Part shown: piece by piece, positions 50,028 to 57,966 of the stretch
Layout: each line of letters starts with the position of its first letter
Position numbering within the stretch: the first letter of the stretch is position 1
From: an uncultured Candidatus Rokubacteria bacterium
GTDB lineage: Bacteria > Methylomirabilota > Methylomirabilia > Rokubacteriales > CSP1-6
Direction: 5' to 3'
Length of the DNA stretch: 64,000 nt
Assembly: GCA_963762145.1 (NCBI GenBank)
Contig: CAVXJS010000011.1
Coordinates: forward strand, 320,001-384,000
Notes under the pieces: generated by a model
Databases searched by the model: none
What the model was told of the DNA's origin: nothing
What the model saw: only the letters and a program-made list of their open reading frames with translations
Position numbers and translations under genes: made by a program

Positions 50028-50511
50028 TCAGTAGGGGAGCCGGCCCTCGCCTAGCGTCGCGTGGTTCTTCCGGGGCACGAGCACGGCTCGGGTATAGGAG
50101 CACACGGTTTCGCCTCGCTGGTTGACGCCCTGGGTGTCGACGGTCACGATGCCGCGGTCGCCCTGGCGCGACTCCCGCAGCGCGAGCACGCGGCTCTTCG
50201 CGTAGAGCGTGTCGCCGATGAACGTCGGCTTCTCGTGCTTGAGCTCGGTCGACCTCGAGGTTCGCGATGGCGCGCCCCGAGACGTCGGCGACCGTCATGC
50301 CGATCACCACGCTGAAGACCAGCGGGCCCAGCACCACGCGCTGCCTGTGCTGGGTGTGGGTCTCGGCATAGTGCGCGTCCGAGTGGAGCGGGTGCTGGTT
50401 CATCGTGAGCAGCGCGAACCACGTGCAGTCCGCCTCGGTGATGGTGCGGCCGGGCCAGTGGGTGAACTCCTGGCCGACCGAGAAGTCTTCGAAGTAGCGG
50501 CCGTAGCTCAC
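50028..50511 (-). CDS. MaoC family (R)-hydratase (one frameshift)
   Basis: GRYFEDF..G...H.PGRTITEAD, MNQHPLH, PTFIGDTL, NQRGE. Confidence 0.9.
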
Positions 50512-52747
50512 GGGGCCTCGAGCCGGCGCGCCGCGAGCCGAGCGCCGCTCGCCCGCCTGGTCGCGCGGCCCGACCAGCAGGCGCGGCCGCGTCGCGGTAG
50601 TAGCGCTCGACAGGGAACTCGCTCGTGTACCCGTAGCCCCCGTGGATGCGCATGGACTCGAGCGTGACCATGTCGGCGGTCGTCGCCCGCGGCCACGGCG
50701 GGCCATCGGCGGCGCCCGCGTCGTCGCGCGCGTCGGCGTCGAGGCGCTCGGCCGCGCGCCCGGTCAGGAGGCGCGCCGCGGTGATCGCGGTCGCCATGTC
50801 GGCCAGCTTGAGCTGCACCGCCTGGTGCTGGCAGATCGGCTTGCCGAAGGTGGACCGCTGCTGGGAGTAGCGCAGCGCCGCCTCGAAGGCGGCCTGGGCC
50901 AGCCCCACCGCGGTGGCGGCGGCGCCCACATTGGTGACGGCCTCGAGCAGCGTCTCGCCGCCTTCGCGGAGCGCCGCCGGGGCGCCGAGGCGCACGCCGA
51001 CCAGGACCACGTCCGCCGCGCCGAGGCCGCGCAGGCCGACGGTGTCGGACGCGAGGCCCACGGTCAGGCCGGCCCGGCCCGACTCGACCATGAAGCACGC
51101 GGGCTCCCGCCGTTCTCCAGCGCGGCGTTGACCAGGAACAGCTTGGCCCGGCCCGCGTTCGGCACCACCGGCGCAGACCCGGTGAGGACCCAGTCCGTGC
51201 CCGCGCGGCGCGCCCCGATGGATGCCGCCCACCAGCGACGGCGGTCCACCGCTCGCCCCGCGTCATCGGGGGCAGCAGCCGCTCGCGGGCATCGCGCGGC
51301 ACGCTCCGCGCCACCGCGAGCGTCGCGGCGAGCTGGGCGGCGAGCCAGATGGCGAGGGCGGCCCAGCCGCGCGCGAGCTTCCTCCACGAGCATGGCCGCG
51401 GTGGTGAGCGGCAGGCCGAGCCCGCCGTGCTCGGCGCCGGCCAGGGCGCCGAGGATGCCGAGCTCGGCGAGCTGCGCCACCAGAGCCTCGGGATCGCGCC
51501 GGCCCTGGTCCTGCTCGGCCGCGACCGGCACGACGTCCTTCTCGACGAGCCTGCCGCACCGCCAGCACGAGCTGTTTCTGCTCGTCCGGGCTCGCCCTCG
51601 CGCGAGGTCAGCGCCCCCGGCCGCTCGCCGTAGCGCTCGAGCAGGTTCCGGCAGATGATGAGACGCTGGATCTCGTTGGTGCCCTCGCCGATGATCATGA
51701 GCGGCGCGTCGCGGTAGAGCCGCTCGATCAGGCCCGAGGCGAGCTGGCCGCGCACGCCTTCGATCTTCATGGCCTCCACCGCGACCGCCTGGGCCGCCTC
51801 CGAGGCGTAGAGCTTGGCCATGCCCGCCTCGAGATCGCACCGCTCGCCGCGGTCCTTCATGGCCGCGGCCCAGTAGGTGACGAGCCGAGCCGACTCCACG
51901 CGCGTGGCGATGTCCGCGAGGGCCGCGGGTGGCTCCGGCAGCGTGCGCGCCGCGCGCAGCGCCTCGTCGAGCGCCGCCTGGGCGACGCCCACCGCGCGCG
52001 CCGCGATGTTGATCCGTCCGGCCTCGAGCCCGGACATGACGTGCTTGAACCCGCGGCCCTCCACGCCGCCCACCAGGTTCGCGGCCGGGCAGGGGAAGGA
52101 GTCGAAAAACAGCTCCGCCGTATCCACGCCCTTGTAGCCGAGCTTGGCGATGGACTTGACGACCTCGAGACCGGGGGCGCCCTTCTCGACGATGAAGCAG
52201 GACATGCCGCGGTGACGGGGGACTCGGCGGGATCGGTCAGGGCGAGCAGCGCGAACGTGTTGCCCTCGCGGCCGTTGGTGACGAACATCTTGGACCCGGA
52301 GAGCAGGTAGCGGTCGCCGTCACGCCGGGCCACCGTGCGGATGGCCTGCACGTCGGAGCCGGCGTGGGGCTCGGTGAGGCAGAGGCCGCCACGCGCTTGC
52401 CCGCTCGCGAAGCGGGGCAGCAGGCGGAGCCGCTGCTCGTCGGTGCCGTGGTTGAGGACGATGAGCGCGGCCATGGTGTGGCTGTTGATGACGCCGGCGA
52501 GGGACATGAAGCCCCGGCAGAGCTCCTCGATGATCCGCGCATAGGTGGTGACGTCGAGGCCGAGGCCGCCGTAGTCGGCGGGCACCAGGGCGCCGAAGAG
52601 GCCGAGGCGCTTCATGCGGTCCACCAGCTCGTGCGGGTAGCGGTCGGCGTGCTCGAGGGCAGGGGCCGTTCCCATCACCTCCCGCTCCACGAACTCGCGG
52701 ACGGAGGCCACGATGGCGGGGGCGCGACTGGCGGTGCGTGGACTCAA
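50508..52747 (-). CDS. Tandem two-module acyl-CoA dehydrogenase (frameshifts)
   Basis: Module 1: CLTEPHAGSD, GSKMFVTNG, KLGYKG, GEGTNEIQR. Linker with no stop. Module 2: RSTFGKPICQHQAVQ, RIHGGYGY..EFPVERYYRDA. Confidence 0.8.
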
Positions 52748-53637: not shown

Positions 53638-53713
53638 ATTGTTGCCTGAAGTGCCGCGCTTTGTATGCGAGCGGATCGGCGTAATCTTGCGCGGTCGAAG
53701 AATAGGACAAGGA

Positions 53714-53757
53714 GATCAATGACTTATCGAGTGCTGGCCGGTGGCAAGCGCCTTGCT
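53714..53757 (+). promoter_or_regulatory. Sigma-54 promoter with upstream IHF-like site
   Basis: GATCAA-TGAC-TTA (53714-53726) and TGGCAA-GCGCC-TTGCT (53742-53757). Confidence 0.65.
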
Positions 53758-53773
53758 CTCCTACAGGCCTGTC

Positions 53774-54232
53774 ATGGAAGAGCACGCGAGAGGGGAGCAC
53801 GTCGCGCTGATCGGGGCATCGCCCGCCACCTGGCAATCACCGGGGACGGAACCGGGGCCCACGCGCCTGCCTTCGCGGGCCCTGGTGGTGGACGATTCGC
53901 TGGTGGTCGCGGAGGTGGTGACCACGCTGCTGCGCCGTACGGGCTGGACGGTGGATGTGGCGACCAGCGTGGACGCGGCCCTCGAGCACGTGCGTGGCGT
54001 GCCCTACGACCTGGTGGTCTGCGACGTCTGCATGCCGGATGGCGGTGGGCCGGCCGTCTACTATGCGGCGACGACGCGGCGACCCGATCTGACCAACCGC
54101 TTCCTCTTCATCACCGGGAACGTGGACGACCCGGAGCCCTGGCGCTTCCTGGCCAAGATCCGCGCCCACGTGCTCGAGAAGCCCTTCACCGGCCGGGCCC
54201 TCCGGCACGCCCTGATCAAGGTCATCGCCTAG
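53774..54232 (+). CDS. Stand-alone response regulator receiver
   Basis: ALVVDDS, VVCDVCMP, FITG, EKPF. Confidence 0.88.
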   Translation: MEEHARGEHVALIGASPATWQSPGTEPGPTRLPSRALVVDDSLVVAEVVTTLLRRTGWTVDVATSVDAALEHVRGVPYDLVVCDVCMPDGGGPAVYYAATTRRPDLTNRFLFITGNVDDPEPWRFLAKIRAHVLEKPFTGRALRHALIKVIA

Positions 54233-54804
54233 CCCGGCCGCTCGTCGCGGCCCTTCTCCTGCTGTCGGCCCTCGCCGGCCCCGTCTGGGCTGGTGCCCCC
54301 ACCGAGCAGCTCCGCGCCTACACCGACCGGGTCGTCAAGATCCTGGAAGACCCCGCGCTCGACCAGGCGCAGCGCAAGACCGAGATCCGCGCGGTGGCGC
54401 TGGAGGCCTTCGACGTGGGCGAGGCGGCGCGCCGCGCCCTCGGGACGCACTGGTCCAAGCGCACCCCCGCGGAGCGCGAGGAGTTCGCCGGGCTGTTCCA
54501 GGGGCTGCTCGAGCGCGGCTATCTCTCGCGCATCGGTGAGTACGGCGGCGAGCGCGTGCAGTACGTGGCCGAGCGGGTGGACGGCGAGTTCGCCGTCGTG
54601 CGGGCCCAGATCGTCACCGCCAAGGGGACCCAGATCCCGATCGAGGCCCGCGTGGTGCGAAAGGGCGAGCGCTGGCTCATGTACGACGTGCTGATCGAGA
54701 ACGTGAGCCTGGTGGCGAGCTACCGCTCGCAGTTCGACCGCGTGATCCGCACCTCCTCCTACGAGGACCTGGTGCGTCGTCTCAAGGAGCGCGGGCAGCC
54801 CTAG
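54229..54804 (+). CDS. MlaC/Ttg2D family periplasmic lipid-binding protein (start unresolved)
   Basis: Signal-peptide-like LLLLSALAGPVWA; ALG.HW...TPAEREEF; YDVLIENVSLVASYRSQF. No canonical start codon nearby. Confidence 0.82.
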   Translation, partial: LARPLVAALLLLSALAGPVWAGAPTEQLRAYTDRVVKILEDPALDQAQRKTEIRAVALEAFDVGEAARRALGTHWSKRTPAEREEFAGLFQGLLERGYLSRIGEYGGERVQYVAERVDGEFAVVRAQIVTAKGTQIPIEARVVRKGERWLMYDVLIENVSLVASYRSQFDRVIRTSSYEDLVRRLKERGQP

Positions 54805-55343
54805 CCGCGCTCCCCGCGCGGGCGCTCCGTGAGGAGCGGCACCAGGAGGCTCACCGCCAGCTCCGCCTTCAGCCGGAGCTCCTCGTCCCGGTTGCCCGCG
54901 ACCGGGTGCGCGATCACCGCGAAGGGGTAGTCGGCCCGGCCGTTCGCCTCGGCCATCGCCCGGGCACTCGCCTCGAACCGGTCGGTGATGACCGCGACGG
55001 CGGGGATGCCGAGCCTTTCGGCGGACATGGCGTCGTGCAGACTGCACGACGAGCAGCTCCCTCAGTCTCCGATCGCGGAGATGATCGCGTCGGCGCCGCT
55101 CATCTCGCCGAGCATCTCCGCGGGCGCGGGGCGGCTCGAGTCGGGCTTGCGCCGGCGAATGAACTCCCGGACGCCGTACCGCGACGCGAGGATCCGCTCG
55201 ACGTGGTTGTAGAAGCCGGCCGTCCCGATCTTGGCGTTGTCGAGGAGGCCGACGACGGTGCCCTCCAGCCCTCGGAGCGGCGCGGCCAGGGTCATGGCGT
55301 CGCCCTCGGCGTCGAGTCGCGGATCCAGCACTCTCAGGCCCAT
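54801..55343 (-). CDS. UGSC family selenoprotein (180 aa with Sec read-through)
   Basis: Two track ORFs are in frame across the TGA at 55064-55062: LDPR...GLLDNAK...AIGD-U-GSCSSCSLHD...ERLGIP...HPV. Confidence 0.88.
55031..55051 (-). promoter_or_regulatory. Bacterial SECIS-like hairpin
   Basis: CGTCGTGCA-GTC-TGCACGACG, a perfect 9-bp stem; loop begins with G 19 nt after the TGA. Confidence 0.75.
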
Positions 55344-55355
55344 GGCTTCCCCTTA

Positions 55356-56390
55356 TCAGATCGTCTTGGTGACGGCGAGCGACTTGGCCCCGTACCACGG
55401 CGGCACCACGACTCCGAACCCCCCGGCCGGGCCTCCCGCGGCCACGATCAGCAGGTCGTCGGGCGACCGAAGCGCGGGGTACACCGTCTCCTCGTCCTTC
55501 CGCGCGGCCACCGCGCTCTTGCCGGCCGTGCGCCACTCGCCCCGGCGCACGCGGGCGGCCTCGAAGACGTAGGCACGGATGTCCGCCTTGCTCCACCCCG
55601 CGGCGCCGATCGTGTCGCGCTGCTGCTTGGCGATCACGAGGGCGTAGTTGCCGGCCCAGATGGAGTACGTGAGCATGTTGGCGCGGATGGCGGCCACGTA
55701 GGTATCGAGGATCTCCCGGGGATCGTGTGTCCACTCGTTCATGATCTGGTGCGGCGACTCCGCCGCGAGCACCGTCACCGCCGAGGCGCCCGCCGGCACG
55801 CCCCGCTCGGCCGCGAGCGACGGCCAGGGACTGTCCTCCTCGTCCTCGGCCACGCAGAAGGTGAACTTGCCGGGATGCCCGAGGGTCGACCGATCGAGCC
55901 GGCCGGGAACGCCGCCGAGCACGTTGATGATGAGCAGCCGGAGCGCCCGCCCGATCGTGGCGTTCGCCCGGCTGCCATTGGCGAGCACGTTGTGGGTCGC
56001 GTTCATCCCGATCGCGGTGCGGACCGGGCCGTTGACCACGACGAACGGGGCACTCCCGCCGGTACTCGCGGTGCACCCGTGTAGCCCGTACGCCGGCTCG
56101 CACACCGCCCGCACGAGCGCCATCACGACCGGCATGTACTCGGGGCGGCACCCGGCCATGACCGCGGCGATGGCCGTCTTCTCTGCGGTGATGCGCCGCC
56201 GCCGCACCGGCTCGACCCCGACGACGTCCCCCGCGCCGACGGTGGCCGCGTCGAGGAACCGCCGGACCAGCTCCTCGGTGGGCGGGACGATCGGCAACCC
56301 GTCCGTCCAGCCATTGCGCTGGAACAGCTCGTTCGCCTCGTGAGGGTCGGCCACGTCGTAGGCCGCCGACCGCAGCGCCTGCTCGGTCAT
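55356..56390 (-). CDS. Uncharacterised UGSC-associated protein (DGLPIVPPT family)
   Basis: GWTDGLPIVPPT, AVMAGC.PEY.PV, VNGP, RANATIGRALRL, TLGHPGK, IVAAGG. Confidence 0.82.
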   Translation of the reverse strand: MTEQALRSAAYDVADPHEANELFQRNGWTDGLPIVPPTEELVRRFLDAATVGAGDVVGVEPVRRRRITAEKTAIAAVMAGCRPEYMPVVMALVRAVCEPAYGLHGCTASTGGSAPFVVVNGPVRTAIGMNATHNVLANGSRANATIGRALRLLIINVLGGVPGRLDRSTLGHPGKFTFCVAEDEEDSPWPSLAAERGVPAGASAVTVLAAESPHQIMNEWTHDPREILDTYVAAIRANMLTYSIWAGNYALVIAKQQRDTIGAAGWSKADIRAYVFEAARVRRGEWRTAGKSAVAARKDEETVYPALRSPDDLLIVAAGGPAGGFGVVVPPWYGAKSLAVTKTI

Positions 56391-56453
56391 CGCGGAACGA
56401 ATGATGACACCGGGTGCCGCTCGACACCAGCCCGAAGCGCGACGTCGCCGAAG

Positions 56454-57047
56454 CTAGTTGGAGGAGCGGGGCGACGACGACTTGGTGACCCACACCACCC
56501 ACGGCAGCGTCGCCGAGTCCTCCCGGCGCACGTCCACGCGATACCCCTGGCTGCGCATGCTGGCGGCGAGGCGGTCGGCCGCGCCATCGTCCGCGAAGGC
56601 GGCCGCACGCACCCAGGGCGCGGTGTCGCCGGCGACGGACCGGACCGGCTTCGGCTCGAGGTCTTCGCGCCGGGGGGCGAGCGCGAGGGCGTCGTTCAGC
56701 CACGTCTCGCGGAGCTCCGGCGACGCCACGGCCCAGGGCTCGTCGCGGGAAAGCGGAGCCGGAGCCTGCGGGAGGAGATAGGGTAATCCGAGGAAGACGA
56801 TCACGAACGTGGGAACGAATGCCGCGAGGGCGGTCTGGATCCCACGCAGCACAGGCGTGCCGGACTCCGGGACCTCTTCCCCTTCTTCCCCTTCTTCTTC
56901 TTCCTTCTCGTCGTCACTCCCGAGGGGATATCGGGCTTCGAGCGAGAGGCGGACATCGTCGAGGAGATCCCGTTCCGGTGCGAGCCACTCCCCAAGCTCG
57001 GTGGGCTCAACGGGACCCGCGGTACTCGCGATCGCTTCACGTTCCAC
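56454..57047 (-). CDS. Bitopic membrane protein with C-terminal SPOR-like domain
   Basis: Acidic cytoplasmic N-region, one transmembrane segment, WVRAAAF...AADRLAASMRSQGY...WVVWV; GTG 57047. Confidence 0.7.
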   Translation of the reverse strand: MEREAIASTAGPVEPTELGEWLAPERDLLDDVRLSLEARYPLGSDDEKEEEEGEEGEEVPESGTPVLRGIQTALAAFVPTFVIVFLGLPYLLPQAPAPLSRDEPWAVASPELRETWLNDALALAPRREDLEPKPVRSVAGDTAPWVRAAAFADDGAADRLAASMRSQGYRVDVRREDSATLPWVVWVTKSSSPRSSN

Positions 57048-57104
57048 GGCTGACCACCCCTTGCCTGCCGGGCAGGTCTGACTCGCTGCTGCTCGGGCCG
57101 GGTA

Positions 57105-57133
57105 AACGTATCCACCCGGGGGCGGCTTGTCAA
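57105..57133 (-). promoter_or_regulatory. Sigma-70 promoter of the SPOR gene
   Basis: TTGACA (57133-57128), 17-bp spacer, TACGTT (57110-57105). Confidence 0.65.
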
Positions 57134-57187
57134 GCGATGTTTTCGGGAAAGTCGGCGTAAGTATGTGACTCTGTTCATGTATAGCTC

Positions 57188-57206
57188 TGTGGATGAATGT
57201 GGATAA
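57188..57206 (-). promoter_or_regulatory. Tandem DnaA boxes
   Basis: TTATCCACA (57206-57198, perfect) and TCATCCACA (57196-57188, one mismatch). Confidence 0.65.
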
Positions 57207-57231
57207 CATCCCCCACGAGCTGCCGGATCGA

Positions 57232-57966
57232 TCAGAGCGCGACGTCGCCGAGGAAGATGCGCTTGACCTCGGCGGACTGGAGCAGCTCCGCCGACGATCC
57301 GGTCAGGATGGTCCGGCCCGATTCGAGGATGTAGCCGCGATCCGCGAGCCGGAGCGCGAGCTCCACGTTCTGCTCGATGAACACGATGCTGATGCCCTGC
57401 TCGTCGCGGATGCGCCGCATCAGGCCGCCGAGCTGCTGCACGACGAGGGGAGACAGCCCGAGGAACGGCTCGTCGATCATCAGCAGGCGCGGGCGCGCCA
57501 TGAGCCCGCGCGCGATTGCCACCATCTGCTGCTCGCCGCCCGACAGGGTGTGCGCGAGCTGGGTCCGGCGGGACGCGATGATCGGGAACAGGCGCTCGAC
57601 CTGCGCCAGGGACTCCGCCCGGTGGGGGCGCGCGACCGGATTGTGGGCGCCCAGCAGCACGTTGTCGAGCACGGTGAGGAACGGGAACAGGCGCCGGCGC
57701 TCCAGCACGTGCGCGAGGCCTTCCCCCGCGGTGCGGTGGGCGGGCAGTCCGTCGATGCGCTTGCCGAGGAGGGTGATGTGGCCCGCGCGGGGCGCGATCA
57801 GCCCCGAGATCGAGTTCATCAGGGTCGACTTGCCCGCCCCGTTCGGTCCCAGGACCGCGACGATCTCGCCCTCGCCCACGTGCATCGCGGCCTGCCACAG
57901 CACCTGGAAGTCGCCGTAGGCGACGTCGAGGCCGTCGACCGATAGCATGGGCGTCGCGGCGCTCAC
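57232..57966 (-). CDS. livF: Branched-chain amino acid-type ABC ATPase
   Basis: GPNGAGKST, LSGGEQQM, MIDEPFLGL, IEQN. Confidence 0.9.
   Translation of the reverse strand: MSAATPMLSVDGLDVAYGDFQVLWQAAMHVGEGEIVAVLGPNGAGKSTLMNSISGLIAPRAGHITLLGKRIDGLPAHRTAGEGLAHVLERRRLFPFLTVLDNVLLGAHNPVARPHRAESLAQVERLFPIIASRRTQLAHTLSGGEQQMVAIARGLMARPRLLMIDEPFLGLSPLVVQQLGGLMRRIRDEQGISIVFIEQNVELALRLADRGYILESGRTILTGSSAELLQSAEVKRIFLGDVAL

Follow-up and report, generated by a model that had tools for sequence, protein, structure and literature searches.

The locus analyzed here raises two questions: whether a TGA triplet lying in frame between two short open reading frames (ORFs) is read as selenocysteine (Sec), and what the resulting protein does together with the product of the gene just upstream. 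It occupies positions 54801 to 56390 of the window, by which we mean the whole 64,000-nucleotide stretch of DNA analyzed. The window belongs to contig 11 (C11; Cn stands below for contig n of this genome) of an uncultured Candidatus Rokubacteria bacterium, whose genome amounts to 6.26 Mb in 25 contigs and is 88% complete. Both genes lie on the minus strand. The first, called here the partner gene, encodes 344 amino acids plus stop at 55356..56390 in the ORF list. The second, at 54801..55343, encodes by read-through translation a selenoprotein of 180 residues, with Sec at position 94, plus stop, and is assigned by its PF24696/NF041046 match to the UGSC family. Our analysis leads to the conclusion that this locus is an ordinary member of a widespread, functionally uncharacterized selenoprotein system, the parts of which were first linked as a fusion in 2008.

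Selenocysteine coding of the UGSC gene

The partner gene comes first, and 12 nt separate its stop from the UGSC start codon. The frame opened by this ATG at 55343 ends at 54801 and contains a single TGA (55062..55064, minus strand), seen on read-through and found at the same column in orthologues and paralogues. This triplet joins in frame the ORFs 55062..55343 (93 aa) and 54801..55028 (75 aa), giving a read-through product of 180 residues with ...AIGD-U-GSCSSCS.... The initial annotation had described such a join through one TGA, giving GD-U-GSCSSC, as well as a 344-aa protein 12 bp upstream with the motifs WTDGLPIVPPT, AVMAGC and RANATIGRAL. Both descriptions are correct, the join being on the minus strand and the three motifs being present in the ORF translation. 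Direct reading of the 12-nt intergenic spacer (55344..55355, minus) revealed a Shine-Dalgarno-like AAGGGGAAG. A contig of 406 nt from an independent soil metagenome (X3) is identical to the window over 55038-55443, with 0 differences, and spans both the TGA and the gene junction. Another run (X16), marked as RNA, a label that is itself a guess, contains a 196-nt contig across the TGA as well as pieces of the partner gene, and was not counted as transcription. A promoter and terminator scan of 54400-57400 returned no sites on either strand.

The joined product matches the Pfam model PF24696 (UGSC) with 162.3 bits (cut-off 25) over model positions 1-171 of 172. It also matches the NCBIfam model NF041046, 'UGSC family (seleno)protein', with 124.7 bits when C is written for U, just below the cut-off of 125. 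By this full-length match, by its D-U-G-S-C motif and by the presence of a TGA followed by a hairpin, the window protein resembles the other members of the family, from which it shows no difference in kind. Its complete motif reads D-U94-G-S-C97-S-S-C100. To assess its conservation, we used the full-length UGSC matches found beside partner genes in other species (71 orthologues). All 71 have U-G-x-C, and the third Cys is present in 53 of them. In this genome, the third Cys is found at its position in only one of the eight UGSC copies, that of the window, and its codon falls in the stem of the hairpin described below. The U-x2-C-x2-C cluster proposed earlier for this protein therefore stands for its first part, U-G-x-C, but not for the third Cys as a general feature.

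The TGA itself occupies the Sec column in 71/71 orthologues, in all 8 UGSC paralogues of this genome and in all 150 UGSC places listed for the phylum sample. Database homologues of UGSC with Cys at the Sec position also exist.

In bacteria, a Sec insertion sequence (SECIS) is a stem-loop that shortly follows the UGA and has a conserved G in its apical loop. The window contains a perfect 9-bp hairpin with an apical GUC, CGUCGUGCA-GUC-UGCACGACG (55031..55051, minus), which starts 10 nt past the UGA. Both its distance to the UGA and its apical loop agree with these features, the first loop base, 20 nt past the UGA, being an invariant G in 71 aligned sequences. This alignment consists of the window segment and 70 of the 71 orthologue segments, one segment that ends in N having been dropped. 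Standard pairs occupy 89.0% of its cells, and sliding the 3' arm by 1-3 columns lowers this share to 10.5-49.3%. Two-sided changes occur in 5 of the 9 stem pairs (21 cells), and the covariation score was reached by 0 of 500 shuffles. Where pairs change in a compensatory manner, from GC to CG in one case and from UA to GU in a second, the amino acid at the third Cys position changes as well. Because the hairpin sits within coding sequence, part of its conservation belongs to the protein. The hairpin is kept in the same register in seven of the eight UGSC copies of this genome, and the remaining copy forms another hairpin, rich in G+C and closed by a GGUC loop. Rfam contains no family for this element, the only row returned being a sub-threshold small RNA match on the opposite strand. 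RNA folding, paralogues and pair counts thus agree with the earlier claim of a hairpin at SECIS distance.

The initial annotation had made the Sec reading depend on the presence of the Sec machinery, and selA, selB, selD and tRNA-Sec were all found. Contig 9 carries a cluster of selA (C9:753893-754987), selB (C9:751777-753660) and tRNA-Sec (C9:756633-756726, 69.3 bits). Two selD genes are located at C11:419505-420437 and C14:136744-137655. The second is without TGA, while the first has its own in-frame TGA and hence encodes a Sec-containing selenophosphate synthetase. This TGA-bearing selD lies about 35 kb past the end of the window.

One could still suppose that the TGA is a true stop and that two unrelated small ORFs happen to lie beside an unrelated gene, since translation table 11 calls the two halves as separate ORFs. 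However, one Pfam model covers both halves, the SECIS-like hairpin is kept with compensatory changes and the genome has a complete Sec machinery. In addition, the TGA is at its column in 71/71 orthologues, Cys takes its place in database homologues, and fusions with the partner read through it. We regard the supposition as so improbable that it hardly needs to be entertained. Together with the full-length PF24696 match and the identical independent contig, these results establish that the TGA at 55062-55064 is a Sec codon, as had been claimed.

Association of UGSC with one partner family

This genome contains 8 UGSC and 8 partner copies, and every UGSC copy is located beside a partner copy. 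The partner copies are 36-47% identical to that of the window. In four of the eight units, the partner precedes UGSC and the two are separate genes. In the other four, UGSC precedes the partner and both form one continuous frame interrupted only by the Sec TGA. One of these fused copies (C14:370297-371656) has at least three frameshifts and is a pseudogene or an assembly fault. Three of the eight units are found within 21 kb (C11:374801-395195), namely the window pair, a fusion at C11:389027-390595 and another pair at C11:393643-395195.

A 'UGSC/Unknown_1 fusion' was reported by Zhang and Gladyshev in 2008 (PMC2398784). In Dataset S1 of that paper, UGSC reads continue into ...GWTDGLPIVPPT...NGVMAGCRPEY..., and the presence of these two segments after the UGSC domain indicates that Unknown_1 is the partner family. 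The system can therefore no longer be called undescribed, as it was in the initial annotation. This genome has four fusions of the reported kind. The window locus differs from them in that its genes are separate, 12 nt apart and in the reversed order, with the partner first, and the partner family is found here to comprise 5031 representative clusters (E up to 0.001, in one collection) and to occur in soil and marine phyla. According to the 2008 paper, Global Ocean Sampling (GOS) data contain 255 Sec forms and 21 Cys forms of UGSC, UGSC is the most used family in non-marine samples, and a thioredoxin (Trx)-like fold was guessed for it. Papers of 2016, 2022 and 2026 list the UGSC family, in the passages available, without a function, and the 2026 review places it among the uncharacterized selenoproteins. 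The full-text literature searched yielded no description of the pair as a two-gene operon, of its near-obligate co-occurrence, of fusions to other redoxins, of a model of the UGSC-partner complex or of a kinship with GrdB/PrdB.

Outside this genome, at least 599 relatives of the partner were found in other species (one genome per species), and the best 80 loci were used. Their six-frame translations were searched with hidden Markov models built from our own alignments, and partner hits of less than 250 model positions were dropped, leaving 83 partner copies. These loci belong to Burkholderiales, Alpha- and Gammaproteobacteria, SAR116, Acidimicrobiia, Dehalococcoidia and other Chloroflexota, Methylomirabilota/Rokubacteria, Myxococcota, Binatia, Acidobacteriota and one spirochaete. 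UGSC is adjacent or fused to 66 of the 83 partner copies: as a separate gene on the same strand, at most 250 nt downstream, for 60 copies, fused downstream for 1, fused upstream for 3 and adjacent upstream for 2. It lies 278-4081 nt downstream of 5 further copies, 1.8 kb upstream of 1 and on the opposite strand, 2.6 kb off, for 1. Seven copies have no UGSC although 700 nt or more of sequence is available on either side, and for the remaining 3 without UGSC the contig ends. Cultured bacteria with the pair include Sheuella amnicola and Hyphomonas neptunium, the latter named in a 2007 paper.

We then counted both families in a sample of the phylum. Of its 151 genomes, 123 have the partner, 124 have UGSC and 27 have neither. 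The sole mismatch is G105, a genome that is 76% complete and in which the UGSC hit, without partner, lies at a contig end. These counts include three unpublished genomes (G029, G058 and G101), all with both proteins; without them, the figures are 120 and 121 of 148. In one family of the phylum, both proteins are present in 93/93 genomes and each genome has 2 to 13 partner matches, a number capped in most of them by scoring no more than the 13 best candidates. In another family, neither protein is present in 18/18 genomes, and in a mixed family both are found in the same 8 of 12 genomes. All these figures are given as counts, without a statistical test, because related genomes are not independent. 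The co-occurrence of the two families had been set beforehand as one of the points on which the two-gene system should stand or fall, and on this point it stands: the genes are adjacent or fused, and 150 of 151 genomes are concordant. This near-constant adjacency or fusion suggests that the two proteins probably form one redox enzyme.

Partner protein, exchangeable modules and predicted complex

In a 57-sequence alignment of the partner family, the near-invariant residues are D30-G-L-P33, P36-P37, M78-A-G-C81-x-P83, P87, G121-P122, R141-A-N143, G147-R148, C179, E182, W189 and G319. Only two cysteines are near-invariant, C81, at the N-terminus of a helix, and C179. The window partner belongs to no Pfam or NCBIfam family. 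A Pfam search with 57 diverse members gave no match beyond noise at E up to 1, Gly_reductase-type models included, and 10 plain or tandem-repeat members had no NCBIfam match. In a collection other than the one cited above, 7999 of 8000 scored candidates match the family, the source names listed being all 'hypothetical protein' and none having a Pfam domain. The nearest clusters in the Protein Atlas are unnamed or auto-named 'Thioredoxin family protein', with no common Pfam family. We also observed a subfamily of 27 among 79 copies, most of them proteobacterial or marine, with a conserved G-A-C-[VIL]-D-C-E tail at the C-terminus (e.g., L066:6001-7050), which is absent from the window partner. 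This CxDCE tail was considered as a stand-in for UGSC and rejected, 22 of the 27 tailed copies also adjoining UGSC.

Forty long partner proteins, chosen for length from 150 listed representatives, were scanned with Pfam. A full UGSC domain is present at the N-terminus of 10 of them. In 6 others, only the post-Sec half of UGSC is found at the N-terminus, and in 3 the pre-Sec half is found at the C-terminus; the former are Sec forms cut by the gene callers and the latter represent the other gene order, also cut. An AhpC-TSA/Redoxin domain occupies the N-terminus of 6 proteins, and a ferredoxin:thioredoxin reductase beta (FTR-B)-like domain that of 1. No Pfam domain was found in the remaining 14, of which 7 are 616-741 residues long, six of these having at least two partner stretches (tandem copies). 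The redoxin domains present CPTC, CATC or CPTS motifs and a ResA-like NCBIfam match, and the FTR-B-like domain resembles the NCBIfam 'FtrB family double-selenoprotein'. Three module types that attack disulfides take the same place beside the partner. In Trx-like fusions (P0204, P0221, P0159 and P0213), the linker before the partner has a conserved K/R-P/F-G-C-[GA]-[SA]-[KR].

These replacements of UGSC in relatives, at the same end of the partner, recall reductases that are served by redoxins, such as the FTR catalytic chain and ResA/TlpA-like CxxC proteins. In contrast to those, the module encoded in the window is predicted to be a flavodoxin-like Sec domain without thioredoxin fold. The AlphaFold2 model of UGSC, made from a 17-row alignment (mean predicted local distance difference test, pLDDT, 89.9), has five beta-alpha units, with Sec94 placed directly after strand 86-92, at the N-terminus of helix 95-110. 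The best Foldseek matches are GTPase domains, lumazine synthase and CheY-like receivers, with template modeling (TM) scores of at most 0.52. No thioredoxin is among the matches listed, which does not by itself exclude that family, and a PDB sequence search with the UGSC profile gave nothing meaningful. From the model, the layout of UGSC looks flavodoxin-like and does not look like the thioredoxin fold guessed in the 2008 paper.

The two proteins do not appear to be equivalent. Where a fused UGSC domain has neither U nor C left, the partner still retains C81 and C179. It also occurs without UGSC, and UGSC was found without partner once in 151 genomes, in the incomplete G105. Taken together, these three observations point to the partner as the core subunit. 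A search for fused UGSC among longer database proteins found none, a weak result, since Sec forms are truncated at the TGA in gene calling; the UGSC-partner fusions surfaced when the search was made from the partner side.

To model the complex, we used a natural Cys-form fusion (P0175, residues 190-528 against 1-178) and a 10-row alignment of natural fusions cut into two domains. The interface score ipSAE was 0.81 for this fused homologue and 0.00 for the best of 3 controls. Of 157 solved complexes, 116 attain the mark applied, as do 2 of 215 mismatched pairs. The runs share at least 84% of contacts, and the pLDDT of the partner chain is at least 82. In window numbering, the predicted interface of the partner comprises W28, P36-E40, V42, 59-68, 71, 74-75, M78, 102, 104-111, L152, N156-G159 and a few others. 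That of UGSC comprises an N-terminal L-D-P peptide, the D-N-x-K and R-K-P loops, residues 95-100 after Sec and helix 121-133. Profile searches of the PDB returned no like solved complex, so the pass of the model does not reflect a memorized structure. The predicted interface supports binding between UGSC and the partner.

We propose, with a confidence that we would call even, that both genes encode subunits of one cytoplasmic thiol/selenol-dependent reductase. Sec coding, pairing, the fusions and the interface predicted in a fused homologue are results of the analysis, whereas the redox reaction, the parts played by C81 and C179, the way in which electrons flow and the nature of the substrate are inferences. 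The partner would be the core, substrate-handling subunit, with C81 and C179. UGSC would act as a dedicated small redox subunit, a flavodoxin-like alpha/beta domain presenting U94-G-S-C97 at the start of a helix. It would dock by its N-terminal L-D-P peptide, its D-N-x-K and R-K-P loops and its Sec loop onto a surface of the partner formed by DGLPxxPPT, the helix ending in A-G-C81, the 104-111 loop and N156-x-x-G. The selenolate of Sec94 may then attack an oxidised sulfur in the partner, at a site around C81/C179, or a substrate adduct held by the partner. C97 would resolve the resulting adduct to an internal Se-S bond, which a general cellular reductant could reduce.

Several observations weigh against this proposal. 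The fold of the partner matches no known reductase. The complex modeled is that of a fused homologue other than the window's own pair. C81, C179 and the Sec-equivalent residue are not among the named contacts, the nearest of which are M78 and the residues just past Sec. The co-folding suggested in the initial annotation, run on this homologue, thus brings the Sec loop into the interface but does not place the partner Cys among the named contacts. The UGSC domains of some fusions are without redox residues, so that this domain may also, or only, be structural. Finally, the near-exclusive use of Sec (71/71 here; 255 Sec against 21 Cys forms in GOS) would be unusual for a redoxin that merely shuttles electrons and fits a catalytic Sec better. 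The 'two-subunit Sec-dependent reductase or thiol-transfer enzyme' advanced earlier nevertheless remains the best reading, while its chemistry is drawn by inference only.

Relation to known enzymes and gene neighborhood

The AlphaFold2 model of the partner has a pLDDT of 95.3 and a predicted TM score of 0.93. In Foldseek, its best matches are class I fumarate hydratases, with an E of 1.8e-4 and weak TM scores of 0.25-0.28. Aligned by VIA-align to the alpha chain of such an enzyme (7xky_A), the model gave a Z of 6.1 and a root-mean-square deviation of 5.5 Å over 186 residues. The best match of this latter search, which is independent of Foldseek, is on a generic alpha+beta sub-domain (residues 222-331), with a Z of 7.0. 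Z levels of this kind are rated common by the search tool itself. No chain was matched by a PDB sequence search with the partner profile. The model thus suggests a fold without clear solved relative. UGSC is tied to one specific partner family that lies outside Pfam and NCBIfam and has no solved relative, and the two together offer a concrete, well-defined object for testing the function of UGSC.

Class I fumarate hydratase, an Fe-S enzyme that also has two subunits, raises the idea of a composite metal or Fe-S site, with Sec94, C97 (and C100) and the partner residues C81 and C179 as ligands, in a hydro-lyase-like or metal-handling protein. Indeed, among solved chains only 7xky_A covers most of the partner model, 53 of the 71 orthologues have U-x-x-C-x-x-C, and 27 of 79 partner copies have the C-x-D-C-E tail. 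However, the fold match is weak (TM 0.25-0.28, Z below the tool's 'common' level), and no sequence or Pfam match accompanies it. Neither the third Cys nor the tail is conserved throughout the family, and the partner has just two near-invariant Cys, where the fumarate hydratase alpha subunit has three cysteines as cluster ligands. The CxxC/CxxS thioredoxin-like replacements, moreover, favor thiol chemistry. We consider such a site improbable.

GrdB and PrdB are the selenoprotein B subunits of glycine and D-proline reductases, and they are paired with the substrate-binding pyruvoyl subunits GrdE and PrdA. In the mechanism proposed for them, the Sec nucleophile cleaves a C-X bond reductively and a Cys resolves the Se adduct to Se-S. 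UGSC gave no match to the corresponding Pfam model PF07355 at E up to 0.01. This genome encodes elsewhere a PF07355 (GRDB)-like selenoprotein of 397 residues with one TGA and a T-U-P-F-C motif (C8:71617-72807, L047/L128). Of 61 genomes from the phylum sample, 41 have relatives of it with one TGA (40 of 60 if the unpublished G058 is set aside), and such relatives also exist in families without UGSC and partner.

We compared the UGSC profile by hhalign with a profile of 26 PrdB/GrdB-like selenoproteins of the phylum. The alignment spans 78 columns and puts Sec on Sec, with a score of 33.3, a P of 5.9e-4 and a probability of 29-51% over both sets used. With the second set, 20 short PrdB/GrdB-like sequences alone, the score was 35.3, P 1.6e-4 and the probability 51%. 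The controls gave 12.9 for the reversed alignment, at most 21.4 for 20 column shuffles and 18.5 for the partner profile, so that none of the 22 reached 22. In both the UGSC and the PrdB/GrdB-like profiles, the aligned Sec region is followed by E-x-x-G-I-P-T. These profile comparisons make remote homology between the Sec core of UGSC and PrdB/GrdB-like selenoproteins probable but unproven. We looked for a partner-family gene in the flanks, of about 1.5 kb, of 30 PrdB-like loci and found none, and a PDB search with the PrdB-like protein returned nothing.

The pair may accordingly be compared with the glycine and D-proline reductases as a whole. The likeness lies in a U-x-x-C placed between a strand and a helix and then followed by E-x-x-G-I-P-T, and in the joining of a selenoprotein to a second, substrate-binding subunit, a role that the partner would have. 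The differences are that UGSC is without PF07355 match and about half the length, and that the partner is unlike PrdA/GrdE. The carriers of UGSC and partner, which we take to be aerobic soil and marine lineages, are also unlike the amino-acid-fermenting Grd/Prd hosts.

By analogy with these enzymes, the partner would do no more than bind and activate a small substrate, Sec94 being the catalytic nucleophile on a C-X bond and C97 resolving the adduct. This is suggested by the Sec-on-Sec profile match with the PrdB/GrdB-like set, above all controls, and by the common order of strand, U-x-x-C, helix and E-x-x-G-I-P-T. The near-universal use of Sec and the presence of 2 to at least 13 copies per genome in varied catabolic neighborhoods agree with it as well. 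Several points argue in the other direction. The profile match is only moderate and UGSC has no PF07355 match; the partner is unlike the Gly_reductase/PrdA-type proteins of Pfam, and the flanks of the 30 PrdB-like loci, about 1.5 kb each, contain none of its relatives. The partner Cys are kept where fused UGSC has lost U and C, and the FTR-B- and Trx-like replacements are explained more simply by the reduction of a protein disulfide. We hold Grd/Prd-like catalysis to be a tentative option, clearly less probable than the thiol/selenol-dependent reductase proposed above. Somewhat less doubtful, and still in our view possible rather than probable, is a broader formulation. The pair would constitute a new two-subunit class of selenoenzymes, with a pared-down relative of the GrdB/PrdB core as small subunit and a large subunit whose fold is new to solved structures. 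It would have radiated into many substrate-specific reductases of small organic compounds, the bacterial family of the window having 2 to 13 or more copies per genome, each with its own catabolic or transport neighborhood. If this were true, selenium chemistry of the Grd/Prd type would extend beyond anaerobic fermenters of amino acids to bacteria that abound in soil and sea.

The neighborhood of the pair was then inspected for hints of a substrate. Simple gene calls based on the G+C content of third codon positions (GC3) missed or mis-framed several genes, and neighborhoods are given only where Pfam-confirmed because such calls are unreliable. The window pair follows a Liv-type ATP-binding cassette (ABC) operon, and a stretch of 840 nt with another ORF lies between the pair and livF. 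The eight loci of this genome differ in their surroundings. Other pairs adjoin tripartite ATP-independent periplasmic (TRAP) DctQ/DctM and SBP_bac_5 genes, or major facilitator superfamily (MFS) transporters. Further neighbors in this genome are CoA-transferase III, ILVD/EDD dehydratases, short-chain dehydrogenases/reductases (SDRs), amidase, M20 peptidase, DHDPS and AtuA.

Among the 80 loci of other species, the neighbors include MFS transporters (13 loci), CoA-transferase III (11), SDRs and Luciferase-like monooxygenases (10 each), LysR (8), TctC and ABC ATPases (7 each), HpcH aldolases and thiamine pyrophosphate enzymes with FlK thioesterase (6 each) and Amidase (5). SelB and SelA are each found at 4 of the 80 loci, and selB or selA lies there within 6 kb of the UGSC/partner pair (e.g., L048:9784-11697 and L121:11005-12369). 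No third conserved gene beyond the pair was found across the 80 loci, the commonest family being present in at most 13. Neighboring ORFs were also clustered as stop-to-stop frames of at least 100 aa, and the two largest other clusters are antisense or overlapping frames over the pair. The earlier suggestion that the enzyme possibly acts on the substrate of the nearby Liv transporter finds no support in these results, given the 840-nt stretch with its ORF, the lack of a conserved neighbor and an ABC ATPase at 7 of 80 loci. The varied neighborhoods suggest many substrates among small organic acids and amides, and the substrate probably differs between paralogues.

The ORF that separates livF from the partner gene (56454-57209, minus) has 251 residues and may or may not be a gene. 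It contains an acidic E/G-rich stretch and a hydrophobic segment, its coding statistics (GC3 score) are weak, and it has no Pfam or NCBIfam match. Farther along the window, an acyl-CoA dehydrogenase at 50508-52747 (minus) is apparently split over two overlapping frames. Its N-terminal and middle domains are found in 51857..52747 and its C-terminal domain in 50508..52205, which suggests a frameshift or a sequencing error. At the other end of the UGSC gene from the partner, a convergent MlaC-domain gene occupies 53665..54804 on the plus strand. It shares with the UGSC gene (minus) the palindromic CTAG at 54801-54804, and the stop codons of the two genes overlap because both terminate on this one palindrome.

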